Of a stretch of DNA of 41,184 bases, positions 1-40,814 are shown piece after piece. The stretch lies in the sequence record NC_093713.1; one strand, given 5' to 3'. Positions within the stretch are counted from its first letter, which is position 1; the number at the start of each line of letters is the position of its first letter. This DNA is from a phage. Under the pieces are notes generated by a model. The model was not told the origin of the DNA. It did not search any database and was given only the letters and a program-made list of their open reading frames with translations. Both the position numbers and the translations under genes were made by a program.

Positions 1-2
1 GA

Positions 3-746
3 CTTGCGGGAGTTCCGGAAGATGCGCCTCTCTGGACGGGAAGCCCGCCTTGCCAACCGTTTAGCGCGGCGGGAAAGCAACTCGGACAGTTCGACCCGAG
101 ACACCTCGCACCTGTGTTCCTCGACCTTATCAGCGAGTGCCGACCTCCAGTCCTCTTTGGGGAGCAGGTTGCGCCAGCAATTGCAAAATCGTGGATGTGC
201 GATTTACAAACTCACCTGGAAGGAGAAGACTACGCCGTCGGGTTTGCCGTACTCCCAGCTTGTAGCGTCGGCGCACCGCACAAACGCGACAGACTGTTCT
301 TCGGCGCGCACAGACTGGCCCACACCGGCGGTATCACTGATAACAAACGACGTGAACATGCGCAGCACAGACGGCAGGACGAAACCGAACAAACTGGGAT
401 GGGCCGCTGCGATGGCGGCTTGGCCTACACCGACAGCGAACGACTACAGGGGGAGCGGAGAGACAGTGATTCGCAAGGACGGGAAGGACAGGACATTCGA
501 CAGGCTGGACTACTCGACGGAGCAGGGTCTGAAAATAACACAACCTATTCGCATCACGGCTTCTGGTCAGATGCTGACTGGCTCGGATGCCGGGATGGGA
601 AATTCAGGCCAGTTGAACCCGGCGCATTCCCGCTGGCTAATGGGATACCCGCCAGAGTGGGACGATTGCGCGGTTATGGCAATGCCATCGTCCCGCAAGT
701 AGCCGCTGAATTTATAAAGGCATTCATGGGGGCGGTAAATGAGTAA
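3..746 (+). CDS. DNA (cytosine-5)-methyltransferase, 3' portion (N-terminus is at the window end, 41003..41184); conserved motifs are split between two reading frames
   Basis: Frame 3 carries PCQPFSAAG (motif IV), PHKRDRLFFGAH (motif VIII) and C-terminal GNAIVPQVAAEFIKA (motif X). Frame 1 carries WPTP repeats and LNPAHSRWLMGYPPEWD (motif IX-like). Both frames are open over ~700 bp. Confidence 0.6.
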   Translation, partial: LAGVPEDAPLWTGSPPCQPFSAAGKQLGQFDPRHLAPVFLDLISECRPPVLFGEQVAPAIAKSWMCDLQTHLEGEDYAVGFAVLPACSVGAPHKRDRLFFGAHRLAHTGGITDNKRREHAQHRRQDETEQTGMGRCDGGLAYTDSERLQGERRDSDSQGREGQDIRQAGLLDGAGSENNTTYSHHGFWSDADWLGCRDGKFRPVEPGAFPLANGIPARVGRLRGYGNAIVPQVAAEFIKAFMGAVNE

Positions 747-2163
747 GTTTCAAAGGCGCGAATACCAGAAGCTCATGACTTCGTTCATGCTGCGGCACCA
801 TCGCTGCAATATCTGGGCGAGCATGGGCAGCGGTAAGTCGGGGTCAACGTTGTGGGTTCTCAATCGACTGTTCCGTAATGGGCAACTTAATGACGACGAC
901 CGAGTGTTAATTCTGGCTCCTTTACGTGTTGCGTCAGGTACGTGGCCCGCGGAACAGGCATGTTGGAACTTCCCCTGTCTGAGTGTCGTAGACGCAACCG
1001 GTTCAGAGAAGCGCCGTATCGCGGCGCTGGAGTCAGATGCTAACGTGGTGTGCACAAACTACGAAGTTATCGAGTGGCTGATTGACTACTACGGCAAAGA
1101 CGACTGGCCTTTTACGGTTATCGTTGCTGATGAGAGCACGAAGCTGAAATCTTTCCGTAGCCGTTCTGGAGGAAGCAAACGGGCTAAGGCGCTAAGCAAA
1201 GTGGCGTTCGGAAAGGTTAAGCGTTTCATTAACCTGACAGGCACACCGTCGCCGAACGGCCTCAAGGACTTGTGGGGGCAGAACTGGTTTATCGACGCTG
1301 GCGAGCGCCTTGGTTCTTCGTACACGGCATTCACAGACCGCTGGTTTAACTCGGTACAGAAAGGGAAATCCGCGATGGCGCGGGAGTATCACGCACGACC
1401 GGGTGCGGATAATGAGATTCATCAGAAGATGAAAGACATTAGTCTCACGATTGACGCCGCCGAGTGGTTTGGATGTGAAGCGCCGATTATTGTACCAGTG
1501 GAAATTGACCTGCCGAAGAAAGCGCGTCAGGCATATACCGATATGGAGGAGAAGTTATTTGCGGAACTGGAGAGCGGAGAAGTGGAAGCGGCTAACGCGG
1601 CGGCGAAGACGTCGAAGTGTTTGCAGATTGCTTCTGGTGCTGTGTATGTATCAGGGCCAGACGGAGAAGCAACCAAAGACTGGGAGAAAGTGCACGACAC
1701 GAAACTGGATGCGCTGGAGTCAATTGTTGAGGAGTTACAGGGTGCTCCGCTACTGGTAGCCTATCAGTTCAAGCACGAACTGGAGCGTATCCTGAAACGT
1801 TTCCCGCAGGCGCAGGCATTCGCGAAAGGTGCTAAGGGTAATAAGCAGATGGAAGCATGGAACCGCGGCGAAATCGAAATCTTATGCGTGCATCCTGCGT
1901 CGGCCGGACATGGTTTGAATTTACAGGACGGCGGACATCATCTGGCATTCATCTCGCAAGGCTGGAACCTTGAGCACTATTTGCAGGTTGTCGAGCGCAT
2001 AGGCCCAGTTCGCCAGAAGCAGGCAGGCCACGAACGCCCGGTGTTCCTGTATCACATCGTTGCTAAAGACACACTGGACGAGGTTGTTGCCGCGCGTACC
2101 GACGAGAAGAAATCGGTACAGGAAGAGTTGCTTAACTACATGAAGAGACGAGGTAAGAAATGA
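739..2163 (+). CDS. SNF2/DEAD-like superfamily 2 helicase
   Basis: 474 aa; Walker A GSGKSGS, DExx-like VIVADEST, motif III LTGTPSPN; ATG with upstream G-rich SD; overlaps methyltransferase stop. Confidence 0.8.
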   Translation: MSKFQRREYQKLMTSFMLRHHRCNIWASMGSGKSGSTLWVLNRLFRNGQLNDDDRVLILAPLRVASGTWPAEQACWNFPCLSVVDATGSEKRRIAALESDANVVCTNYEVIEWLIDYYGKDDWPFTVIVADESTKLKSFRSRSGGSKRAKALSKVAFGKVKRFINLTGTPSPNGLKDLWGQNWFIDAGERLGSSYTAFTDRWFNSVQKGKSAMAREYHARPGADNEIHQKMKDISLTIDAAEWFGCEAPIIVPVEIDLPKKARQAYTDMEEKLFAELESGEVEAANAAAKTSKCLQIASGAVYVSGPDGEATKDWEKVHDTKLDALESIVEELQGAPLLVAYQFKHELERILKRFPQAQAFAKGAKGNKQMEAWNRGEIEILCVHPASAGHGLNLQDGGHHLAFISQGWNLEHYLQVVERIGPVRQKQAGHERPVFLYHIVAKDTLDEVVAARTDEKKSVQEELLNYMKRRGKK

Positions 2164-12368: not shown

Positions 12369-12397
12369 TTGCACACCCCAATATAATAGGGTACTAT
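12369..12397 (+). promoter_or_regulatory. sigma70-like promoter (TTGCAC-N17-TACTAT) carrying the conserved palindromic element
   Basis: Element AATAGGGTACTATTCA at 12380..12400; same architecture on the - strand at 30306..30334 and 31115..31143. Confidence 0.55.
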
Positions 12398-12427
12398 TCA
12401 CTTACACCAACAATGGAGGGATTTAAA

Positions 12428-12657: not shown

Positions 12658-13788
12658 ATGGCCCAGAAGAAAATAACCGACGAACAGTTGCAGGAAGAAT
12701 TGAACGCCGGGATGAAGAATATCGATATAGCTCGTAAATACGGCATCTCTGACCGCGTTATCCGTATCCGTAAAGCGAAGCTGGCTAAGAAAGGCGTAGG
12801 CCACGGGCGCGACGTTAGTCACCTTGTGCCGGACGGCTACAAGATTAAAGGAACGTCGTCGCTGGTGGACGAGTTCGGCAACACTAAGTTGCAATGGGTT
12901 AAGACAGACACCGATGCTGAACGTCAGGTCGAGTTGATGAAAGCCGTAATCGAAGGAATGAAATCAGAGATTACGCCAGTCGCCCCTGTTAAAGCAGCAC
13001 GCGCCAAACGCGACGGCAAGCTACTCAATCTTTACACGGTATCTGATTTTCACCTCGGTATGCTGGCATGGGCTGACGAGAGCGGCGACGACTGGGATAT
13101 GAAAATCGCGGAAGACCTGTTCTCTCGTTGGTTCGATGCCGCGTTTCAGAAAGCGCCGGATGCAGGAACAGGAGTTATTAATCTGCTCGGCGACCTTGCG
13201 CACTTCGATAGCCTGGACGCCGTTACACCGGCAAGTGGTCATGTTCTCGATGCGGACACGCGCTATCAGAAACTGGTCCGCTACATGATTCGTATGGTCC
13301 GCCGTGTCGTTGATATGGCCCTTGTTAAGCATAAAAATGTTCGCTTGCTTATTGTGCAAGGTAACCACGACGAAAGCGGAATGATTTGGTTAGCTGAGAT
13401 GTTCAGCACACTGTACGACAATGAGCCTCGTGTGTTCGTCGATACGTCGCCGGATGTTTACAAGATGGTGCAACACGGCAAAACGACGCTGTTCTTTACA
13501 CACGGGCATAAATGCCGGTTTGAGGTGGTCGAACCCATTATGATAGCTAAGTTCAGAAAAGCATTTGGCGAAAGCGAGTACAGTTACGCACATGTCGGGC
13601 ATCTCCACCACCAAAAGATTGTAGAAAGCCGTAACATGGTTGTTGAGCAACATCGCACCTTAGCGGCGAAAGATGCATATGCTTCCCGCGGCGGGTGGAT
13701 GTCAGGCCGTAGCGCAAACGTAATTACTTATAGCGCCGAATATGGCGAGGTCGCACGTTTAACTATTTCACCGGAGATGCTTGGATGA
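12658..13788 (+). CDS. calcineurin-like metallophosphoesterase with N-terminal HTH domain
   Basis: 376 aa; motifs SDFHLG, LGDLAHFD, QGNHDE, THGH, GHLHH; N-terminal MKNIDIARKYGISDRVIRIRKAK HTH; SD GAGGAA. Confidence 0.7.
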   Translation: MAQKKITDEQLQEELNAGMKNIDIARKYGISDRVIRIRKAKLAKKGVGHGRDVSHLVPDGYKIKGTSSLVDEFGNTKLQWVKTDTDAERQVELMKAVIEGMKSEITPVAPVKAARAKRDGKLLNLYTVSDFHLGMLAWADESGDDWDMKIAEDLFSRWFDAAFQKAPDAGTGVINLLGDLAHFDSLDAVTPASGHVLDADTRYQKLVRYMIRMVRRVVDMALVKHKNVRLLIVQGNHDESGMIWLAEMFSTLYDNEPRVFVDTSPDVYKMVQHGKTTLFFTHGHKCRFEVVEPIMIAKFRKAFGESEYSYAHVGHLHHQKIVESRNMVVEQHRTLAAKDAYASRGGWMSGRSANVITYSAEYGEVARLTISPEMLG

Positions 13789-27804: not shown

Positions 27805-27833
27805 AATATAATAGGGTCTAAGGTAATAGTCAA
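27805..27833 (-). promoter_or_regulatory. sigma70-like promoter (TTGACT-N17-TATATT) for the small-gene operon
   Basis: Hexamers with 17 nt spacing just downstream of two terminators. Confidence 0.5.
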
Positions 27834-27855
27834 CTAGTCATTACAGAAAACAGAT

Positions 27856-30274: not shown

Positions 30275-30305
30275 ATTCTGTCTCCCCTCTCGTTTGTGTA
30301 AATGA

Positions 30306-30334
30306 ATAGTAGCCTATTCTATCTTAGTGTGCAA
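30306..30334 (-). promoter_or_regulatory. sigma70-like promoter (TTGCAC-N17-TACTAT) with conserved palindromic element
   Basis: Element TGAATAGTAGCCTATTCTAT at 30303..30322. Confidence 0.5.
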
Positions 30335-31080: not shown

Positions 31081-31114
31081 AACCCTCACTCCTCTGTCTC
31101 GTTTTGATAAGTGA

Positions 31115-31143
31115 ATAGTATCCTATTATGTTGGGGTGTGCAA
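31115..31143 (-). promoter_or_regulatory. sigma70-like leftward early promoter (TTGCAC-N17-TACTAT) with conserved palindromic element
   Basis: Near-identical to the 12369..12397 promoter; element TGAATAGTATCCTATTATG at 31112..31130. Confidence 0.55.
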
Positions 31144-31516
31144 GAGATTAGTTACGTTGCCGTTGTGATTCTTCAGGTAGGGTTGTGCCTTTATTCTTAT
31201 TACTTGGTAACTAAAGGGCAGGCCCTAAGCCTGCCCAATAATCGTTACATTTTTACGGTTGCGAATCTACGGCACTTTAAGAAAATCAGATACTTAAGAT
31301 ATATTCCGCCGATGGGAATAGAGCTTGCCCAGGGCAACCGGAGATACTTAGGAAGGAAAGTTACGATAATTCGAATGTTCAGTAAACTGCCGCCTAACAC
31401 TTCGCGTTGGGCGCTCGTTTTCGGCGGGTTTTACAAGGTGAACAAGAATCAAAGTAACTAAGATACAGAAGCACCTTAAACGAAGATTTCCATAATGTCA
31501 ATAGGTGCGATTATGT

Positions 31517-31545
31517 TTGATTTCCCATTATTCGCAATGTATACT
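31517..31545 (+). promoter_or_regulatory. sigma70-like rightward promoter (TTGATT-N17-TATACT)
   Basis: Hexamers ~30 nt upstream of the HTH regulator gene. Confidence 0.5.
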
Positions 31546-31577
31546 TGGTTTCGTTAACTGATAATGGGGGTTTGAGA

Positions 31578-31748
31578 ATGACACAGAATGAAGTAGCCGA
31601 GCGTATTGGGGTTACCCGTCGCACGCTGAATAACTGGTTAAAGAGTGGGAAGTTCCCGGATTGTTGTATCCGTATTATGGGCCGCCGGCAGCCGGGTACT
31701 TTCGACCCGGAGAAAGTGGAAGCGTGGATTAAGGAGAATGTAAAATGA
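31578..31748 (+). CDS. small HTH DNA-binding regulator (AlpA / excisionase-like)
   Basis: 56 aa from the ATG preceded by GGGGGT; VAERIGVTRRTLNNWLKSGKFP HTH; the track ORF begins at an upstream TTG. Confidence 0.55.
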   Translation: MTQNEVAERIGVTRRTLNNWLKSGKFPDCCIRIMGRRQPGTFDPEKVEAWIKENVK

Positions 31749-31978
31749 CCGAGTTCCAGTCCCGCGTATTTACGGCAGTCGTTTCATTAACCCGTAAAAA
31801 AGGGTCGTGCAGCGTTATGGACTTGCGCCGTAGTTATTTTAGGTACTATAGTTCCGCCATTATTGAAGGGTCGTTGAAGGTACTGGTTAAATCTGGTGTC
31901 GTGAAAAATGTTGGCGGGAAATATAGTGCTGTTGCCGAAGTTCGCGGAATGACCGCTACTTTAGAAGACCTGGAATAA
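31745..31978 (+). CDS. hypothetical protein (77 aa)
   Basis: ORF track; ATGA overlap with upstream gene. Confidence 0.45.
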   Translation: MTEFQSRVFTAVVSLTRKKGSCSVMDLRRSYFRYYSSAIIEGSLKVLVKSGVVKNVGGKYSAVAEVRGMTATLEDLE

Positions 31979-32036
31979 AAGAAAGCCCCGACGCGGTGAA
32001 CGCCGAGGCTAAATTACTTGCTGAAGGAAATATAAC

Positions 32037-34295
32037 ATGTCCGATGTAATTTTATCCTACTCGTGGTCTCGTCGCAACGCGCGGGCCGAGAAAAAGGATA
32101 TAAACGTCAGAACCACACACACGGCAACGCTGGACGACCTGAAAGATTTAATCCAGCCGCTTGATGCTGTCCGTGACGGAATTAACCCGAAGACCGCACC
32201 TGGTTACATCACCGCTGCGTGCGACTCTACGCACAGCACCGTAAAAGACCCGGAAACAGGTGACTTTAAGCAAGCGCGTAAAGGCTTTTTCTATCGCTGC
32301 GACGCGTCTGTAAGCAAATCGTCGCTGGCGTACCTGGACTTTGACAGTGCAACCCTGGAAGAGTATCAGGAAGCTGTGCGCCTGGTTAAGCGCAGCCGGC
32401 GGGCGATGTGCCTCTATACCACGGCATCACACACAGACGAAGCCCCGCGCTTTCGCGTCGTCATGCCGCTGGCCCGAACGGTTGAGGGCGGTGACATCAT
32501 TCGTGTTCGTCATGGATTGCTGGAGCACTTCTTCAAAGGCATGGGCGCCGACCGCAGCGGGTTCACTCTTTCGCAGCCGATGTACTTGCCTCCTGTCGGC
32601 GCTACCGTTATCTGGTCGCGCCGCAACGACCTGATTGACCCTGATGAGTTACTGGAAGGCGTCCCAGCCGTTGACATCAGCAGCGCATCTGATTACCAGA
32701 TACCGGAAGAACTGCGCACCGCGTTTACAGATGCGTTTGAAGCACTGGCATTCGAGTACGGCGGCATCATGACGCCGCGTGGCCTTAAGATGCCAGCTAC
32801 GCCAGAACACGCAGAAAACTACAGCGACCCGACACCACGCCCGGACGATTTCCTGTTATGTTTCCCGCGCGAGGGATACGAAGCGCCGAACGTAACCATG
32901 ATTCACGACACCGACATTGCCGCGACCGAAGGAATGCCCCCGAAAGAAGTGTGGAAATACGCGTGTGATGCGACCGGGCTGCCGTTCAGTGAAGTCGCCG
33001 AGGCTATCGGATGGGGTGCGCGTGAATCTGTTTCATGCAGCCTCGACGACCTGGAAGACGATGATGACTCAGAAGAGGACGAGCTACCGGAACCGGTAAA
33101 GGCTGATTTCGTCGTTGAGGGGTACATGCCGTCAGATTGTATCTGGGATATTGTTGGGGAATCCGGCACGTACAAATCGTTCTATACGCTGGGGATGATG
33201 TACCTGAGCGCCGCCGGATACCGGTTTGCCGGGGCGGATACCCAGCGTTGCCACCATTTCTATATCGACGGTGAGGGAGGCGCAGCTACACGCACACGTA
33301 TTGACGCGCTCGCGGCTAAATACGGCGAGGAAGGTAAAGATTACGTACATGTCATTGATATGGGTGAGGTGCTCGCCGCGCATGGTGATAAAAAAATCCC
33401 CGCGCTAATCCGCAGGATGCGTGAAGCTGCAGGGGACGAGCCTATTGGTATGGTCGCGTTCGATACCCTCAACCAGACGCTGGCCCTGACAATTGACAAG
33501 TTCGACGAGAACAGTTCATCAACTGCAATTGGCATGGGTAAAGTTATCGCCATCCTTAAAAAAGTACGCGACGCAACTAAAGCCGCTGTGGGTGTCGTCC
33601 ACCATACGCCTAAGGGTGGAAAGAAAGCCCGTGGTAGCGGGGCGCTGTATGCCGGTGTTGATGTGGAGCTGACAATTGAGCGCGCTACCGACCGCCAGAT
33701 AAACGTATACCACTCGAAATTTAAGCATGGGCCTCAACAGAAAACGGTTGGCATGGTTCTGGAGTCGGTACAGTTCCGTGAAGCCCCGCCTCCGAAAGAA
33801 TACCGTGCGGTTGAGTTCCTCGGTAGCACAGAGGAATACGGCACAATCGTAAACCTCGATCTGCCTGAGCCGCACAAGGCGCTTGTGCTGATGCCGTGGG
33901 GCTTCGAGCCGTTCAAAACTGACGAGGAGAAGGAGCGGGAAGAAGGGTTAACTAAAGAAGGTAAAGAAAACGTAAAGAATGCTGTAAAACGCGGGAAGGA
34001 TGAAGGGCGTAAGGAATCAATACTCGCCGCGCTGGAAGACCTGCAACAGTCCGACGACACCGGACGAGGTTTTACCCAACGGCAGATAGTGGCGAACTCG
34101 GGGGACCACGCCATCACCAACCACCATCTTGAGAAGATGCTGAAAGACGGTGAGTTGATGCTCGGGTGCGATGTTAACGGTGAAGTTATACCAGGCACAT
34201 ACCGGATACCTGAAAAGATGGGGGACAGATTAAGACCGAAGACGATATACGAACCGAATGAACTGTTAACAGTGACAGAGGAGGATTTAGAATAG
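32037..34295 (+). CDS. primase / replicative ATPase (PrimPol-like N-terminus with RecA-like AAA_25-type C-terminal domain)
   Basis: 752 aa; Walker A-like GESGTYKS; Walker B-like VAFDTLNQ; SD AAGGAAAT. Confidence 0.6.
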   Translation: MSDVILSYSWSRRNARAEKKDINVRTTHTATLDDLKDLIQPLDAVRDGINPKTAPGYITAACDSTHSTVKDPETGDFKQARKGFFYRCDASVSKSSLAYLDFDSATLEEYQEAVRLVKRSRRAMCLYTTASHTDEAPRFRVVMPLARTVEGGDIIRVRHGLLEHFFKGMGADRSGFTLSQPMYLPPVGATVIWSRRNDLIDPDELLEGVPAVDISSASDYQIPEELRTAFTDAFEALAFEYGGIMTPRGLKMPATPEHAENYSDPTPRPDDFLLCFPREGYEAPNVTMIHDTDIAATEGMPPKEVWKYACDATGLPFSEVAEAIGWGARESVSCSLDDLEDDDDSEEDELPEPVKADFVVEGYMPSDCIWDIVGESGTYKSFYTLGMMYLSAAGYRFAGADTQRCHHFYIDGEGGAATRTRIDALAAKYGEEGKDYVHVIDMGEVLAAHGDKKIPALIRRMREAAGDEPIGMVAFDTLNQTLALTIDKFDENSSSTAIGMGKVIAILKKVRDATKAAVGVVHHTPKGGKKARGSGALYAGVDVELTIERATDRQINVYHSKFKHGPQQKTVGMVLESVQFREAPPPKEYRAVEFLGSTEEYGTIVNLDLPEPHKALVLMPWGFEPFKTDEEKEREEGLTKEGKENVKNAVKRGKDEGRKESILAALEDLQQSDDTGRGFTQRQIVANSGDHAITNHHLEKMLKDGELMLGCDVNGEVIPGTYRIPEKMGDRLRPKTIYEPNELLTVTEEDLE

Positions 34296-34304
34296 GCAAA
34301 AAGA

Positions 34305-34323
34305 AAGGGGCGTTAAGCCCCTT
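34305..34323. terminator. bidirectional terminator hairpin between primase and repressor genes
   Basis: AAGGGGC-GTTAA-GCCCCTT. Confidence 0.5.
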
Positions 34324-34528
34324 CACCGAACGCCAGCCACTTGGCATCTACTTGCAGCACTTCCGCCAGTTTAAACAGCGTCGCTGGGCGGACGTCCTTA
34401 GTTACACCGAGTGCCAGCTGGTTAATCGCGCCCTGGGAAACACCGGCCAGGACAGCCAGACGGCGTTGGGAAATGCCGAGTTCTTTACGGCGCTGTTCTA
34501 CACGGATGCCTAGTTCAGATGGTTGCAT
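34313..34528 (-). CDS. XRE-family HTH transcriptional repressor (Cro/CI-type)
   Basis: 71 aa; QRRLAVLAGVSQGAINQLALG HTH; SD AAGGAG; transcribed divergently from the operator-containing rightward promoter. Confidence 0.75.
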   Translation of the reverse strand: MQPSELGIRVEQRRKELGISQRRLAVLAGVSQGAINQLALGVTKDVRPATLFKLAEVLQVDAKWLAFGEGA

Positions 34529-34555
34529 GTCAATTACTCCTTAGTCAGTTGATAT

Positions 34556-34622
34556 GTGAATAGTACCATATTAATTATTTTAGAAAAGCCCATTGACAAC
34601 GTGAATAGTTCGCTATTATAGT
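34556..34622. promoter_or_regulatory. divergent promoter region with two copies of the conserved palindromic element
   Basis: Rightward TTGACA-N18-TATAGT overlapping GTGAATAGTTCGCTATTATAGTT; second, degenerate copy TGTGAATAGTACCATATTAAT toward the repressor gene, whose own -35 is poor. Confidence 0.55.
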
Positions 34623-34653
34623 TAACACATACCAAACGAGAGGAGAGAAACAA

Positions 34654-35172
34654 ATGTTAGAGAAATTCTTGGTATTACTGGAACGTTTCGTAGTCGCCCA
34701 CGAACTGATTGCTGCAAACAGTGTGAAACAACCGACTAGCAAATCTGTAGGTGAATTGACTGTTGACGTCGCGGTAACTGGGGTAGAGACAGTTAAAAAA
34801 GAACTGGCTAAAGCACTTGAAGAAGTCGAGAAGGCGAAAGAAATCCCGGTTGAAGGTGAAGACATCGTCGACACTAAACCAGCAGAAGAAGAGAAGCCGA
34901 AACGCAAGCCGCGTAAATCTAAAGTAGAGGAACCGACGCCAGAACCGGAAGAGAAGGAAGAAGTAGATTACCAGTCTCTGCGTGACCAGATTCAGGCTAT
35001 CGACGATGCAATTAACGAAGGTCCGAGCGACGCCGCGTGCGATGATTCCGATGAACTGCTGGAAGAGTTCACCGGTAAGAAGATGAAGATTGCCGCGATT
35101 AAAGACGAAGACCTTGCCGAATACCTGGAACGCCTGACGGCAATCAAGAACAAGTATTTCGAAGAAGAATAA
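34654..35172 (+). CDS. acidic protein (172 aa), hypothetical
   Basis: SD AGGAGAG; Glu/Asp-rich with a strongly acidic C-terminus; first gene after the operator-controlled promoter. Confidence 0.55.
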   Translation: MLEKFLVLLERFVVAHELIAANSVKQPTSKSVGELTVDVAVTGVETVKKELAKALEEVEKAKEIPVEGEDIVDTKPAEEEKPKRKPRKSKVEEPTPEPEEKEEVDYQSLRDQIQAIDDAINEGPSDAACDDSDELLEEFTGKKMKIAAIKDEDLAEYLERLTAIKNKYFEEE

Positions 35173-35215
35173 TTATCCCGCGGCCTTCGGGCCGCTTTAA
35201 CTGAGGGTCGGGATT

Positions 35216-35488
35216 ATGATTTACCAACTATACCGCGCCGTTGACCGGCGGGATAACACAGAGGCGCTATGGTTATTGCGTGCGCCGTCCGGTGCACACC
35301 AGATGGGAGATATGGCGTACTTAGGCAAAGTGCCACGGCCTAAAGACATAGGCCGCCACGTGTCACATATTAAGCGCACGACTTTCGCCAAACCGGACTT
35401 TTACGTCTTCGAGTCGATGTATGGCTGGGCTATGCACTGCGACCATAAGACACGACATTTAATTGACCAGTGGGAGAGCAGGGTATGA
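35216..35488 (+). CDS. hypothetical protein (90 aa)
   Basis: ORF track; SD GAGGGT. Confidence 0.45.
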   Translation: MIYQLYRAVDRRDNTEALWLLRAPSGAHQMGDMAYLGKVPRPKDIGRHVSHIKRTTFAKPDFYVFESMYGWAMHCDHKTRHLIDQWESRV

Positions 35489-36735
35489 TTTTAAAGGAAC
35501 GCGGCGGCAATAACGATGTGCACGCCTTACTGTCGCCGTCTGGTGCTAAAAAGTGGCTGGCGTGCAGTGCATCACTGGCCTGTGAAAAAGATATTCCTAA
35601 CACGTCAGGTAAAGCCGCCGTATTAGGGACGGCTATGCACACCATAGCTGAGATGCACTTAAACCAGTACATCAAAGGCACTGCGTTGCCGTTAGAGCGC
35701 GAAGTAGGTGCTTACGTGCTGGATGAGGGTAAAGGCCAGATTAAGGCGCTAATCAGCCCGATGAAAGGCGCGGTACTGATTACGGCTGACATGATTGAGC
35801 AGGTGCGCAAGTACACCGACCACTGCAAAGCTGTTATCGATGTAGCGACTTACGCCAAACTCGAGATGCGTGTCAATCTTACTGAGGTATTGCATCCAGG
35901 CTACGAAGGCGTTGAGACATTCGGAACCGCCGACATTGTTGCCGTTCAGGAACTGGCGAACACCGACGAGCACATGCTCATTATTGGCGACCTTAAAACT
36001 GGACGGCATCGTGTTGAAGCGAAAGAAAACAAGCAGCTTATGCTTTACGCTCTCGGAGTTTATCGCCGACTCAAGAGACGTTATAACATCACAGTAGTGC
36101 GCCTGGTCATCTTCCAGCCGTACGCGGGGGGTGCGTCAGAGTGGGACATCTCGGTCGAAGGTCTGGAACTGTTCGCTAAGTTCGCACAGAAACGGGCACT
36201 GTTAGCGCTTGATGCTTATTTCCGTGGAAAGAAGAACCTGAAAGCGTCGGACTTTAAACCGTCGGTCGATGGTTGCCAGTGGTGCCGGTTCTCTGAACAG
36301 TGTGCCGCGCGTACAAAGACGGTTAATTCTGTACTGGCGGAAGAACTTGAAGACGACTTTGTGCTGGAACTGACGACGGAGCAACTCGTAGTTGAGTATG
36401 AGAAGTTGCCGCTGTTGCGCCAGCACATCGACAAGGTTGAGAAAGCGATGTCCGCCGCATTGCATTCCGGTAAGAAAGTGCCAGGGTACAAACTGGTAGA
36501 AGGCCGCCCGGGTAATCGTGCGTGGAAAGATGCCGATGCGATTGAAGTGTCACACGGCGACATTCTCAAAAAAGAGGTATTGATGTCCCCTACGGAGGCA
36601 GCAAAAGTTCTTTCTGCGGATGAGATGGCAGCGCTTGAGCCGTTTATTACCCGTAAGCCAGGCGCACCATGTGTCGCAACGGCAGACGACAAACGTCCTG
36701 AGTGGAATCAGGTTAGTGAAGAAGATTTGGAATAA
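35485..36735 (+). CDS. PD-(D/E)XK nuclease with C-terminal Cys cluster (DUF2800 / Cas4-like)
   Basis: GDLKTG and QLMLYALG motifs; C-terminal CQWCRFSEQC; ATG at 35485 with SD GGAGAG (track starts at a GTG at 35470). Confidence 0.65.
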   Translation: MILKERGGNNDVHALLSPSGAKKWLACSASLACEKDIPNTSGKAAVLGTAMHTIAEMHLNQYIKGTALPLEREVGAYVLDEGKGQIKALISPMKGAVLITADMIEQVRKYTDHCKAVIDVATYAKLEMRVNLTEVLHPGYEGVETFGTADIVAVQELANTDEHMLIIGDLKTGRHRVEAKENKQLMLYALGVYRRLKRRYNITVVRLVIFQPYAGGASEWDISVEGLELFAKFAQKRALLALDAYFRGKKNLKASDFKPSVDGCQWCRFSEQCAARTKTVNSVLAEELEDDFVLELTTEQLVVEYEKLPLLRQHIDKVEKAMSAALHSGKKVPGYKLVEGRPGNRAWKDADAIEVSHGDILKKEVLMSPTEAAKVLSADEMAALEPFITRKPGAPCVATADDKRPEWNQVSEEDLE

Positions 36736-36739
36736 AGTG

Positions 36740-36768
36740 TTGACACCTGAATAGTTAGCTATTATAGT
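36740..36768 (+). promoter_or_regulatory. sigma70-like promoter (TTGACA-N17-TATAGT) with conserved palindromic element
   Basis: CTGAATAGTTAGCTATTATAGTT in the spacer and -10. Confidence 0.55.
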
Positions 36769-37467: not shown

Positions 37468-37493
37468 AAGGCCCTTCATTGGGCCCTTTTTAC
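37468..37493 (+). terminator. rho-independent terminator
   Basis: AAGGCCC-TTCATT-GGGCC followed by TTTTTA. Confidence 0.55.
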
Positions 37494-37503
37494 CGGAGTC
37501 AGA

Positions 37504-37977
37504 ATGGAACATATAAAAGATTTTCTAAGCTACGACCGAGAAACCGGGGTATTTACGTGGATACAGCCTACTTACCGTCGAGGGCGACCGGGAGACATTG
37601 CGGGGTGCATCAATAGTAGTGGATACTGGCGAATTCCGTACATGGGTCGATATTACATGGCGCACAGGCTAGCGTGGTTTTTCGAGTACGGTGAATGGCC
37701 CGAAGGCCCTCTTGACCATATAAACCGTGACAGGTTAGACAATAGGATTTCTAACCTAAGGAAAGCAACAACCGCCGATAATGTGCGAAACGCTAAAAAT
37801 AAGGGAGCTAGAACAGGAGTTAAGGGGGTAGTTAAAAACGGCAACCGATTTTACGGGCGTGTGCATTTTAACTACAAAAGTTATAACGCTGGTAGCTACG
37901 GAACTCTTGAAGAAGCAGAAAGCGCTGTAAAGAAATTAAGAGAAAAACTGCACAAGGAATTTTATTGCCATGACTAG
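37504..37977 (+). CDS. HNH homing endonuclease (with AP2-like DNA-binding region)
   Basis: 157 aa; MAHRLAWFFEYGEWPEGPLDHINRDRLDNRISNL HNH motif; free-standing between SSB-like and polymerase genes. Confidence 0.7.
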   Translation: MEHIKDFLSYDRETGVFTWIQPTYRRGRPGDIAGCINSSGYWRIPYMGRYYMAHRLAWFFEYGEWPEGPLDHINRDRLDNRISNLRKATTADNVRNAKNKGARTGVKGVVKNGNRFYGRVHFNYKSYNAGSYGTLEEAESAVKKLREKLHKEFYCHD

Positions 37978-40147
37978 TTTATTATACCTGGATACCGAGA
38001 CGTTCTCTGAAGCGGACTTAAAGAAAGTCGGGTCGTATGCGTACGCGGAGCACCCAACGACAGAGGTTATAATTTGTACATATGCCGTTGATGACGGTCC
38101 TGTAGAAGTATGGGATTGCACTTCCGAACCAGTAATGCCGATAAGCCTCCGTGTTGCGCTCCGTAATGTTATGCGCGGACGTATGAAAATCGTGGGCCAT
38201 AACTTTTTAATGTTCGATCGTCTTATCATGAAGCATTGCTGGGACTTTGATATTCCGGTAAGCAACACCATTGATACGATGATTTGGGCGTTTCGTCACG
38301 CGCTGCCGGGTTCTCTTGATGCGCTGTGTGAAGTGCTTGGCGTGTCCGCAGACAACGCGAAAGACAAACGAGGCAAAGCGCTTATTCAGCGTTTTTCTAA
38401 ACCGACACCGAAGAACTACAAAATCCGCCGCTACACTGCTGAAACGCACCCGGATGAGTGGGCGCTGTTCATCAAGTACGCCGTTAGCGACATCACCGCG
38501 ATGCGTGAAGTGTTCCATAAGCTGCCACGTTGGGGCAACTCCGAGTTCGAAGACCGTGTGCTGGAACTGGACCAGTTAATCAACGACCGCGGGTTTAAGG
38601 TTGACGTTGCACTGGCGGAAGCCGCGATTGAAGCCGTGGAGAAACACAAAGCGCAGTTACAGGAAGAAGCCCAACGTAAATACGGCGGCTCGCTTACCGG
38701 AAAGGACTTCCTTCCTATTCTGCGTGAACTCGCACCGGCGCACCGTATTCACAACGCACAGAAGTCAACGCTTAACGACCTGCTTGCTGACGACGATTTA
38801 CCGGACGACGCCAGCGCGATTATCGAGATGCGACTCGGGGCCGCGTCTACCGCGTCAACGAAATATAACCCGCTGTTGTTGGGCCGCTCTTCTGACGACC
38901 GCCGTCGCGGTTGCATACAATATGGTGGAGCTAAGCGTACTTTACGGTTTGCAGGTAAAGGCTTCCAGCCGCAGAACCTCGCACGCGGGTACTATCACGA
39001 TGATGAACTGGATAAAGGAATTTCTGCGTTACTTAAGGGCCGCGCTCATCGTCGATTTGACGTAGCCAAGCTAACGGCATCTACCGTTCGTAGCTGCATC
39101 ATACCGGAAACTGGACATAAGTTTGTCGTTGCCGATTACTCTAACGTCGAAGGCCGCGGGCTTGCGTGGCTGGCGGGGGAAGAAACCGCGCTAGATACGT
39201 TCCGTGCCGGACTGGATATTTACTGCGTAACCGCGGGTAAGATGTTCGGTATGGAGCCGGATTACATTAAGAAAGAACGTAAAGACTTACGCCAGATTGG
39301 TAAGGCATGCGAACTGGGACTTGGCTACGCGGGTGGTGTCGGCGCATTCGTACAGTTCGCCAAGAACCTCGGCCTTGACCTTGTTGATATGGCAAAAACA
39401 ATGGACGGGACTTTCCCCGACCACATCTGGGCCGCTACCGCGCGTGGGTATGAGTGGGCGCGTATTCAGGAAGCCAAGAGACCGCCACGTCCCGGTGAAA
39501 AAGATGACCGACCATCATATATTCTGGACAAGAAAGTGTGGCGTACATGCGACGCCATCAAGCGTATGTGGCGGGAGTCTCACCCTGAAACAGTAGCTTT
39601 CTGGCGGGATATTGAAGACGCAGCTATGGCAGCTATCCGCAATCCAGGTAAAGAGTTCACTGCAGGGCCTCGCGGCGTTAAGTTTTCGCGTAACGTAGAG
39701 ACAGATAACAACGGCAACAAAGTCGCCGGTTGGTGGTTGCGCATGACGTTGCCGTCGGGCCGCGTTATGTCTTATCCAGGTGTCGGGTTAAGCGTGTCGA
39801 AAGAGACAGACGAAGACGGGAAGGTGTCCACTAACGTCCGCATCAAGTACCAGGGCGAAAACCAGTTAACACGGCAGTGGGGCTTCCAGTACACATATTC
39901 CGGTAAACTCGTGGAAAACTGCACTCAGGCGCTGTGCCGTGATTTGTTGGCTAATGCGCTGCTTAACGTAGAAGCAAACGGCTATCCGATTGTGCTTCAC
40001 GTACACGATGAGATTATCTGCGAGACACCAGATTTACCAGAATACAATGTTGCAGAGCTTGAGCGGTTGATGTGCGAATTACCGGAATGGGCTGAGGGGT
40101 TCCCTCTTGTAGCAGAAGGTGCGGAGATGAAGCGTTATGCCAAGTAA
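37970..40147 (+). CDS. DNA polymerase, family A, with 3'-5' exonuclease domain
   Basis: 725 aa; exo motif LYLDTETF; polymerase motif C LHVHDEII. Confidence 0.85.
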   Translation: MTSLLYLDTETFSEADLKKVGSYAYAEHPTTEVIICTYAVDDGPVEVWDCTSEPVMPISLRVALRNVMRGRMKIVGHNFLMFDRLIMKHCWDFDIPVSNTIDTMIWAFRHALPGSLDALCEVLGVSADNAKDKRGKALIQRFSKPTPKNYKIRRYTAETHPDEWALFIKYAVSDITAMREVFHKLPRWGNSEFEDRVLELDQLINDRGFKVDVALAEAAIEAVEKHKAQLQEEAQRKYGGSLTGKDFLPILRELAPAHRIHNAQKSTLNDLLADDDLPDDASAIIEMRLGAASTASTKYNPLLLGRSSDDRRRGCIQYGGAKRTLRFAGKGFQPQNLARGYYHDDELDKGISALLKGRAHRRFDVAKLTASTVRSCIIPETGHKFVVADYSNVEGRGLAWLAGEETALDTFRAGLDIYCVTAGKMFGMEPDYIKKERKDLRQIGKACELGLGYAGGVGAFVQFAKNLGLDLVDMAKTMDGTFPDHIWAATARGYEWARIQEAKRPPRPGEKDDRPSYILDKKVWRTCDAIKRMWRESHPETVAFWRDIEDAAMAAIRNPGKEFTAGPRGVKFSRNVETDNNGNKVAGWWLRMTLPSGRVMSYPGVGLSVSKETDEDGKVSTNVRIKYQGENQLTRQWGFQYTYSGKLVENCTQALCRDLLANALLNVEANGYPIVLHVHDEIICETPDLPEYNVAELERLMCELPEWAEGFPLVAEGAEMKRYAK

Positions 40148-40354: not shown

Positions 40355-40503
40355 CAATGTTTGTATTTCGGACGATAGTAACCATGCTCGCACTGTTACT
40401 CGGGGCGGGAATAGCCGCGATGTTCTGTTACGGCCTGTTCTTTAAGTTTGCCGGTGTTGCCGTTCTAGGCGGGGCGTTTATAACTTGGGTTCTGCGCTCA
40501 TGA
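40351..40503 (+). CDS. small membrane peptide (50 aa)
   Basis: Hand-translated MTMFVFRTIVTMLALLLGAGIAAMFCYGLFFKFAGVAVLGGAFITWVLRS; ATGA-coupled to VRR-NUC. Confidence 0.35.
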   Translation: MTMFVFRTIVTMLALLLGAGIAAMFCYGLFFKFAGVAVLGGAFITWVLRS

Positions 40504-40784
40504 CCCCGGAAGGCAAAATACAGAAATACGCAAAAGAGCGATTCGAGGCCATCGGCGGCCTCGTTCGTAAGCTCTCCTACGAAGGACGTTCGGGTGCCCC
40601 TGACCTGCTGGTAATTCTCCCCGGCGGCATAGTCTGGTTCGTCGAGGTGAAGAAAGACGAAAACACGAAGCCAGACCCGCACCAGATACGTGAGCACGAG
40701 CGGATGCGTAAACGTGGTGCGAATGTTTTTGTCGTTGGTTCGTTTAAACAGGTTGACGACCTAATAGCGAGCTATTATAGTTAG
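40500..40784 (+). CDS. VRR-NUC domain nuclease
   Basis: 94 aa from ATG at 40500; PDLLVILPGGIVWFVEVKKDENTKPDPHQ fits the VRR-NUC pattern. Confidence 0.65.
   Translation: MTPEGKIQKYAKERFEAIGGLVRKLSYEGRSGAPDLLVILPGGIVWFVEVKKDENTKPDPHQIREHERMRKRGANVFVVGSFKQVDDLIASYYS
40753..40781 (+). promoter_or_regulatory. sigma70-like promoter (TTGACG-N17-TATAGT) with conserved palindromic element, inside the 3' end of the VRR-NUC gene
   Basis: CTAATAGCGAGCTATTATAGTT. Confidence 0.5.
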
Positions 40785-40814
40785 TCATACACCAACAATA
40801 TAAGGAATTGAGAA

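Follow-up and report, generated by a model that had tools for sequence, protein, structure and literature searches.

We analyzed the complete genome of a phage (sequence record NC_093713.1; 41,184 nucleotides, referred to below as the window, i.e. this whole stretch of DNA) and describe here a small helix-turn-helix (HTH) regulator of the XRE family, encoded on the minus strand at 34313–34528, together with a set of palindromes that lie in promoters across the genome. Our analysis suggests that the regulator, found in a virulent phage, is an autoregulated, Cro-like repressor of early and middle transcription, acting at seven or more promoters through one 14-bp operator, AATAG-N4-CTATT. We consider it probable that this holds jointly with the identity of the protein as an orphan homologue of phage 434 Cro, i.e. 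one without a CI partner.

A Cro-type protein encoded by a leftward monocistron

The open reading frame encodes 71 amino acids (aa) and is preceded by a strong ribosome-binding site (RBS; AAGGAG, 7 nt upstream of the ATG). The protein scores above the curated cut-off of the Pfam HTH_3 model (PF01381; 48.2 bits, cut-off 23, E 1.1e-12, profile positions 2–55 of 55), which places it among the XRE/Cro-C1-type HTH proteins. Its best sequence match in the PDB is phage 434 Cro (phmmer E 1.7e-7), residues 6–68 aligning to Cro residues 4–64 with 27 of 63 identical (43%); both proteins are 71 aa long, and the homology covers the full length of a ~70-aa single-domain Cro of the 434 type. The DNA-binding domains of the 434 repressor and P22 C2 come next, while HipB and HigA are weaker matches than 434 Cro. 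The AlphaFold2 model (predicted local distance difference test score, pLDDT, 79) is a five-helix bundle (helices 5–17, 21–28, 32–39, 48–57 and 62–66) with the helix 2–turn–helix 3 arrangement of XRE proteins. A Foldseek search with this model returned SinR-N, 434 Cro (2cro, 42% identity), C.AhdI, the 434 repressor, HipB and P22 C2, and all 23 matches at E ≤ 0.001 were XRE-type HTH proteins, apart from one integrative model without a clear class.

The 3-kb region around the gene is 97% identical to Escherichia phage K1ind1 and ~90% identical to many genomes of the genus Kagunavirus (subfamily Guernseyvirinae), and its matches reach hundreds of Salmonella Jerseyvirus records. At the protein level, identity is 93–100% within Kagunavirus and ~50% to Jerseyvirus, and more than 450 records of the phage collection searched carry an intact copy of the gene. 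The HTH motif (SQRRLAxxxGVSQGAINQLALG) is invariant in homologues down to 76% identity, paralleling the invariant operator half-sites described below. Beyond this phage group, the nearest homologue is the cro of a lambdoid Klebsiella phage, located between cI and cII. Annotations of the gene in relatives vary from "repressor" to "DicA" or "CI-like", or are missing; K1ind1 (NC_041897.1 / GU196279.1, 31959–32171) encodes a 100% identical 71-aa protein whose gene is unannotated in both GenBank and RefSeq. One published genome paper lists a "transcriptional repressor DicA", yet states in the same text that no repressor is present.

Transcribed leftward as a monocistron, the gene extends from its own promoter to an intrinsic terminator on the minus strand (34304–34324; 8-bp stem with five GC pairs, then CTTTTTGCCT), which overlaps the regulator stop codon. 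Its neighbor is a convergent helicase-primase gene (32037–34295), annotated as the same 2,259-bp gene in K1ind1. Because the plus strand of the terminator has no T-run, the convergent helicase-primase transcript is not predicted to stop there; it may read antisense through the regulator gene (34295–34528) and could interfere with its transcription. This gene context rules out two other functions of small XRE proteins. An antitoxin of the HipB/HigA type would be expected next to a co-transcribed toxin gene, which is absent here, the gene being monocistronic. A controller (C) protein of a restriction–modification (R-M) system would call for a restriction gene, but none is annotated, and the only methyltransferase gene lies 6 kb away in the operon of promoter P_R3 (see below).

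Two putative operators in the divergent region

The divergent region upstream of the regulator is 125 bp long and holds two copies of the palindrome, 45 bp apart from start to start. The perfect putative operator, O_R1 (34604–34617; AATAGTTCGCTATT), lies between the −35 and −10 elements of P_R1 (34593–34622, plus strand; TTGACA-18-TATAGT, 11/12 consensus positions), which drives the genes from that of a 172-aa phrog_3127 protein through that of a DUF2800 nuclease. The imperfect one, O_M (34559–34572; AATAGTACCATATT, or AATATGGTACTATT on the minus strand; one mismatch to the palindrome), covers the −10 of the regulator's own promoter, P_M (34560–34568, minus strand). P_M has an extended −10, TGgTACTAT, whose hexamer TACTAT occupies 34565 to 34560, and no usable −35, the hexamer 17 bp upstream (CTTTTC) matching the consensus at one of six positions.

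Both sites are conserved in a manner that follows this layout. The O_M half-site AATAT is identical in all 33 unique related sequences, and the TG of P_M is invariant across relatives, with the n position varying between G, C and A. The G-to-T defect in the O_M half-site is what creates the TG of the extended −10, so a promoter without a −35 can work and the defect is kept. In O_R1, the half-sites are invariant and the center is variable (35 unique sequences). The first gene downstream of P_R1 has at least four unrelated alternatives among the phages, with promoter, operator and 5′ untranslated region (UTR) kept up to the start codon.

The first-pass annotation of this locus, made from the sequence alone, had described a leftward Cro/CI-type HTH gene, two copies of a palindromic element, a near-consensus rightward promoter and a poor −35 for the repressor; all four are borne out, with the extended −10 as an addition. 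Its picture of a genetic switch with two operators holds for the divergent gene and the two local sites but proved too local, since the putative regulon comprises at least seven sites. With so many sites and no CI partner, nothing suggests bistability.

Activation of P_M from O_R1, in the manner of lambda CI at OR2, was considered and rejected: by coordinate arithmetic, the center of O_R1 falls ~57 bp upstream of the start predicted for P_M and does not occupy a class II position. The local start-to-start spacing in Kagunavirus differs from that in the Jerseyvirus SETP3 (~55 bp; 34479 and ~34534, counted from the sequence) by about one turn of the helix, and the two sites therefore keep their relative face.

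The palindrome marks seven promoters across the genome

Allowing one mismatch, the palindrome (AATAGNNNNCTATT) occurs 12 times in the window, compared with a mean of 0.90 in dinucleotide shuffles, none of which reached 12 (0/100). In an unbiased census of all 5-Nx-5 palindromes it ranks first, with six perfect copies (starting at 12385, 30305, 31114, 34604, 36750 and 40763) against ~0.03 expected, and it is the top palindrome in three genomes.

All seven copies (the six perfect ones and the near-perfect one at 34559) lie inside sigma-70 promoter-like sites, which follow two designs. Class A promoters (n = 3, all rightward) read TTGACA-N4/5-AATAGnnnnCTATT-ATAGT, the operator filling the spacer; located at 34593, 36740 and 40753, they are the three best-scoring plus-strand promoters of the genome. 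Class B promoters (n = 4) read TTGCAC-N10-AATAGGnTACTATT, with the operator atop the −10; one is rightward (12369) and three are leftward (30334, 31143 and the regulator's own).

Operon contents were identified from annotated relatives and Pfam. Besides P_R1, class A comprises P_R2 (36740–36768, plus strand; TTGACA-17-TATAGT, 11/12; operator 36750–36763; SETP3 site 32244), which drives genes for an Enc34-type single-stranded DNA-binding protein (SSB), an HNH protein and DNA polymerase, and P_R3 (40753–40781, plus strand; TTGACG-17-TATAGT, 10/12; operator 40763–40776; SETP3 orthologue 27430), which drives a 63-aa gene and the genes for a cytosine methyltransferase and a SNF2 helicase, in an operon that wraps to window positions 1–2163. 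The three class B promoters other than P_M share the form TTGCAC-17-TACTAT. P_imm (12369–12398, plus strand; operator 12385–12398 over the −10; SETP3 orthologue 15245) drives genes for an Imm-like protein, a metallophosphoesterase, a polynucleotide kinase (PNK) and a deoxynucleoside monophosphate (dNMP) kinase. P_L2 (30305–30334, minus strand; operator 30305–30318 over the −10; SETP3 orthologue 38978) drives a 182-aa gene and continues toward the holin and endolysin genes, and P_L1 (31114–31143, minus strand; operator 31114–31127 over the −10; SETP3 orthologue 37864) drives small genes (DUF551, DUF7438 and others). The operon of HTH_17 and helicase-primase has a plausible promoter at 31517–31545, without an operator.

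A candidate weak eighth site on the minus strand (27805–27838; ACTAGTTGACTATT, one mismatch) overlaps the −35 of TTGACT-17-TATATT. It follows the lysis cassette and precedes the small-gene, terminase and structural genes, is kept in fTaEco01 (38988) and SETP3 (40840), and is a putative member of the regulon. In all, three weaker one-mismatch sites of the late region are kept in a second Kagunavirus: 27825, which falls within the span just given and overlaps the −35 of a leftward promoter, 22671 and 21043. Only 27825 is also kept in SETP3; all three are candidates only.

The operator-bearing promoters are paralogous cassettes that share −35, operator, −10 and 5′ UTR motifs. The sites at 12385 and 40763 have ACACCAACAAT in common, and those at 34604, 30305 and 31114 have RBS regions of the AACGAGAGGAG type (regions compared: 12398–12412, 40782–40814, 34623–34653, 30275–30304 and 31081–31113). 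This suggests that a promoter–UTR module was duplicated and dispersed. P_R3 with its operator (40753–40784) lies within the last 8 codons of a VRR-NUC gene (40485–40784; ..V D D L I A S Y Y S*), so that this palindrome is kept within coding sequence. In SETP3, the operator-headed Imm operon also carries a Rha/KilAC "anti-repressor Ant" gene (12728–13399), at a place where the window has nucleotide-kinase genes.

Half-sites are conserved and co-vary with the recognition helix

We aligned all seven sites individually, including 40 bp on either side, over 38 IMG/VR Kagunavirus loci and three GenBank genomes. The columns of the 5-bp half-sites were 91% invariant, with a mean minor-allele fraction of 0.003, compared with 36% and 0.108 for the central 4 bp and ~50% and ~0.07 for the adjacent 12-nt flanks. 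In SETP3, the top palindrome is the same element, extended to TAATAG-N4-CTATTA and found at orthologous promoters. Five of its sites are perfect, another with one mismatch lies next to the regulator gene, and the regulator's own −10 is covered by an operator-like element that is more degenerate and was judged by eye. Jerseyvirus therefore appears to keep the same seven-site layout despite ~50% protein identity.

These patterns bear on whether gene and sites are merely the decaying remains of a lambdoid immunity region from an ancestor, without present function. Such an origin would fit the lambdoid cro that is the closest outside homologue, as well as the NinH-, NinZ- and DUF551-type lambdoid small genes that the genome carries. 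We nevertheless regard a functionless relic as very improbable, since the gene is intact throughout the records mentioned above, highly similar within Kagunavirus and invariant in its HTH motif, the half-sites are far more conserved than neighboring bases, and the layout survives between genera that share only half of their residues in this protein.

More distant relatives allowed sites and protein to be compared across a wider range. Diverged Guernseyvirinae-like contigs were retrieved by a profile-based IMG/VR scan, with DUF2800, SSB and PolA proteins at 50–70% amino-acid identity. Enrichment of AATAG-N4-CTATT is confined to loci whose regulator carries the helix 3 sequence SQGAINQ or SQSLITH. 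The homologue of one contig, L070 (44% identity; helix 3 TQGGIGH), is accompanied by four copies of AATAC-N4-GTATT; two of these lie just upstream of the HTH gene, and the copy at the gene's own promoter is again imperfect. In a second contig, L107 (48% identity; helix 3 SQGYISH), we found five copies of TTAGC-N2-GCTAA, one of them upstream of the gene. For these two palindromes Markov simulations expect ~0.25 sites per locus. The diverged homologues thus appear to keep the 14-bp 5-N4-5 geometry and the promoter embedding, while the half-site changes along with helix 3. Because the 14-bp dyad has conserved 5-bp half-sites and co-varies with helix 3 in relatives, the regulator most likely binds AATAG-N4-CTATT as a dimer.

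Could the palindrome be read by another protein, with the XRE regulator controlling at most its own locus? One candidate is the 56-aa, MerR-like HTH_17 protein (31578–31748, plus strand), and a host factor is another. The two genera with AATAG-N4-CTATT in common, Kagunavirus and Jerseyvirus, both have HTH_17, and an "early" HTH gene in RNA sequencing (RNA-seq) of phage K1B4 is probably HTH_17, by gene order. However, the HTH_17 promoter has none of the seven sites, whereas two of them lie beside the XRE gene in a layout typical of autoregulation. L070 and L107, in which no HTH_17 homologue was detected (12.7–20 kb per locus), keep dispersed 14-bp palindromes that vary with the XRE helix, which weakens HTH_17 as the reader of the sites. 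The 14-bp dyad also fits an XRE dimer, whereas regulators of the recombination directionality factor (RDF) type, such as phage 186 Apl, bind direct repeats according to one paper (PMC7498355), and by analogy the same may apply to HTH_17. As for a host factor, St162-type Salmonella phages have no AATAG-N4-CTATT although they share their host with Jerseyvirus, which argues against it. Recognition by HTH_17 or by a host factor is, in our judgment, improbable.

The divergence in specificity could also be taken to indicate that the main role of the repressor is homo-immunity, i.e. silencing later-arriving genomes with the same operators, alongside the Imm-like protein. Operators are present on all strong early promoters, an Imm-like superinfection gene lies in one regulated operon, and operator specificities have diversified between related lineages, as expected of immunity types. 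Yet Kagunavirus and Jerseyvirus share one specificity across different hosts, and diversification is equally expected from the drift of a co-evolving protein–site pair. Homo-immunity is compatible with Cro-like repression of early and middle promoters, but we think it unlikely to be the main role.

No lysogeny apparatus accompanies the regulator

The window is a complete, circularly permuted genome: its last 1,500 and first 1,500 bases form a single unbroken alignment block in two relatives, the end of the window continuing into its start. The ~2 kb outside the window in which the first-pass annotation had proposed to look for an integrase therefore does not exist. The first 25 kb are 93–94% identical to K1-capsule-specific Kagunaviruses of 40.8–42.0 kb, and the window is colinear with fTaEco01. 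The phage is a strictly lytic siphovirus of Escherichia coli K1, in the genus Kagunavirus. Published isolates are described as lytic.

Absence of an integrase, as that annotation had it, holds for the complete genome and for its relatives. No integrase is annotated in K1ind1, fTaEco01, SETP3 or CP088689.1 (a related record described below), and no unmatched gap in the complete genome relative to colinear relatives is large enough for one, the only unmatched stretch above ~500 bp versus fTaEco01 being a divergent helicase-primase block. Absence of an excisionase holds less strictly: the HTH_17 gene is annotated "excisionase and transcriptional regulator" in relatives, but no integrase accompanies it. 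The genome has no annotated integration or plasmid-maintenance functions and was not seen as a prophage. The 4.7-kb regulator region had no copy in 5,426 complete E. coli genomes, no close homologue of the regulator was found among 185,579 species-representative bacterial genomes, and all homologue clusters in a set of 5.8 billion proteins lie on contigs of at most 45 kb.

The regulator itself does not resemble a CI-type repressor, since it is a bare 71-aa HTH without a C-terminal oligomerization or S24 autocleavage domain. Nor does its surrounding resemble an immunity region: the divergent gene encodes the phrog_3127 protein, or is replaced by unrelated genes in relatives, and the annotations of complete relatives list no further XRE protein and no S24 protein. 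The earlier suggestion that the protein regulates early promoters rather than lysogeny is supported computationally by the seven promoter sites, the footprint and the co-variation, together with the absence of lysogeny machinery.

With an operator at nearly every strong promoter, a repressor in sufficient amount could silence the genome without any integrase, and the regulator might in this way maintain a non-integrated quiescent or carrier state (pseudolysogeny). Operators stand on all DNA-metabolism operons except helicase-primase. In addition, PLSDB lists a complete Kagunavirus genome of 44,086 bp (CP088689.1) as a circular plasmid, "pC16EC0033-2", of C16EC0033, an E. coli isolate from human blood. 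This record has no partition, replication-initiator, telomerase or integrase genes beyond the normal phage set, and it is the only one of its kind among 72,556 plasmids, compared with none in the E. coli genomes above; it may reflect phage carry-over in culture, or a carrier state. The regulator's want of CI-like oligomerization and cleavage domains, the helicase-primase promoter free of an operator and the lytic behavior described for isolates speak against pseudolysogeny, and we regard it as a doubtful explanation of the regulator.

Proposed mechanism

The phage encodes neither an RNA polymerase nor a sigma factor. We propose that host RNA polymerase fires all operator-bearing promoters on phage entry. 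A Cro-like dimer would then accumulate and occlude the spacer or the −10 of the six target promoters with perfect operators; given these operator positions, a bound dimer should block host RNA polymerase, and repression rather than activation is the predicted effect. The DNA-metabolism and small-gene operons would be turned down as the regulator builds up. P_M would be shut only at a higher protein concentration, a form of negative autoregulation, because its operator is weaker (one degenerate half-site) and the promoter has an extended −10. The expected outcome is a Cro-like shut-down or dosing of early and middle transcription, without prophage maintenance; the operator hierarchy and the timing are read from sequence features.

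A more far-reaching version is also conceivable, although we give it a low probability, slightly above that of each of the more doubtful alternatives above. Here the regulator would be the only temporal programmer of the phage, with graded operators on essentially every sigma-70 promoter, perfect ones at the early and middle operons and degenerate ones at its own and at late-region promoters; at high dose it would produce a reversible, non-integrated silent state. If true, this would explain why a clinical isolate has a Kagunavirus "plasmid", and therapy phages that formally count as "virulent" could persist.

Several points weigh against Cro-like repression of early and middle promoters as we propose it. 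The seven promoters are visibly paralogous, so some of the copies reflect duplication and not selection at each site independently, and the right half-site overlaps the −10 (TACTAT, or CTATT-ATAGT), so that some of the conservation could be promoter constraint. In relatives of the St162/FSL SP-031 type, which have a homologous HTH protein, no clean operator could be defined. A literature search found no paper on the regulator protein. Finally, the only Kagunavirus time-course RNA-seq (K1B4) classes most replication genes as "middle" or "late" (PMC12645636), and gene order places the XRE gene among the "middle" genes rather than the earliest ones; these data neither support nor refute an early shut-off.

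We rejected the K1B4 "early HTH gene 008" as the regulator. The K1B4 gene order (004 "specific DNA binding", 005 AAA domain, ..., 008 "Helix-turn-helix domain"; PMC12645636) matches fTaEco01 044–048, and 008 is probably HTH_17 while 004 is probably the XRE regulator, in the "middle" class. A candidate replacement operator in the St162-type phages, ATATTA-N6-TAATAT, is present at three promoters, without a convincing copy next to the HTH gene. No enriched palindrome emerged in Serratia phage Scapp, which has the same HTH–primase module in a GC-rich genome.

Other features of the genome

The helicase-primase gene and the small genes that precede it (31748–34239) do not align to fTaEco01 at megablast stringency, and the 3′ end of the gene (within the 33500–36500 query) is ~97% identical to K1ind1, a pattern indicative of mosaic exchange involving the primase module. 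In relatives of the St162, L070, L072 and L107 types, and in Scapp, the primase gene is inverted and immediately follows the XRE gene, with which it forms an operon. Between the SSB and DNA polymerase genes, a gene for an HNH_3 homing-type endonuclease (37504–37977) coincides with an alignment gap to fTaEco01 (37493–38003) and is therefore probably a mobile insertion.

A noncoding stretch of ~450 bp (31128–31577) separates the divergent P_L1 operon from the HTH_17/helicase-primase operon and holds a strong hairpin (31216–31236; GGGCAGGC...GCCTGCCC). It does not align to fTaEco01, with both flanks aligned, and a similarly sized gap is present at this place in SETP3. The stretch could be a replication origin or a small RNA locus. 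An Rfam scan of the whole window, including this stretch, gave no matches. The second most over-represented palindrome of the genome, GCCCC-N4-GGGGC, forms four hairpins (2305, 14832, 21121 and 22690), terminators that mark operon ends, and is kept in fTaEco01 and SETP3.

Comparison with known systems and implications

The operators of phage 434 are 14 bp long, with A at position 1 and T at position 14, and a glutamine contacts position 1. Like 434 Cro (PDB 2CRO/3CRO/1ZUG), the regulator has 71 aa, the five-helix XRE fold and 27 of 63 aligned residues in common, and its putative operators are 14-bp dyads that start with A, end with T, have a variable, uncontacted-looking center and overlap promoters. 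The glutamine at the start of helix 3 is kept (VSQ here, VKQ in 434 Cro), whereas the other helix 3 residues differ (QGAINQ here, QQSIQL in 434 Cro), which fits the different half-site (AATAG instead of ACAA(G/T)). Unlike the 434 system, there is no cI partner and no tripartite OR/OL, and the phage is not temperate. Two local operators lie 45 bp apart and at least five others are dispersed over 41 kb, and the gene, instead of being the first one of PR, forms a leftward monocistron under an extended −10 promoter of its own.

Small repressors with many operators scattered at promoters or operon heads are familiar from temperate phages, namely P1 C1, mycobacteriophage L5 gp71 with its "stoperators" and phiC31 c with its conserved inverted repeats. 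Those proteins maintain lysogeny and belong to other families or larger architectures, and the P1 and L5 sites are asymmetric, whereas the protein described here is a bare Cro-type domain in a phage without a lysogeny apparatus. The C proteins of R-M systems (C.AhdI and C.BclI, Foldseek ranks 3 and 7) are structural neighbors, likewise small XRE dimers that are autoregulated via palindromic operators arranged in pairs and that serve as timers once DNA has entered the cell; in contrast to the dispersed sites found here, without a restriction gene, their C-boxes are adjacent and serve as activator and then repressor sites at a single promoter. The names DicA and HipB given in relatives (e.g. fTaEco01 TE1_044 and phage 590B) reflect domain-level similarity only: the HTH_3 domain is common to them, but no partner toxin or dicB-type gene is adjacent here, and the gene stands alone between a terminator and a divergent promoter.

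The mechanism we propose, a Cro/XRE repressor acting on palindromic operators, is itself familiar; what is uncommon is an orphan of this kind in a virulent phage with at least seven dispersed operators. Our literature search found no description of these operators or of the regulon. Kagunavirus and Jerseyvirus are among the most often isolated candidates for therapy and biocontrol of E. coli and Salmonella, and recognizing the protein as a Cro-type lytic regulator with a defined regulon would remove a false lysogeny flag from therapy phages. The compact, strong and repressible promoters, together with natural specificity variants (AATAG, AATAC and TTAGC), could serve phage engineering. For a phage subfamily of more than 450 records, the seven promoters, the single 14-bp operator and the autoregulated extended −10 promoter would provide a testable transcription map.

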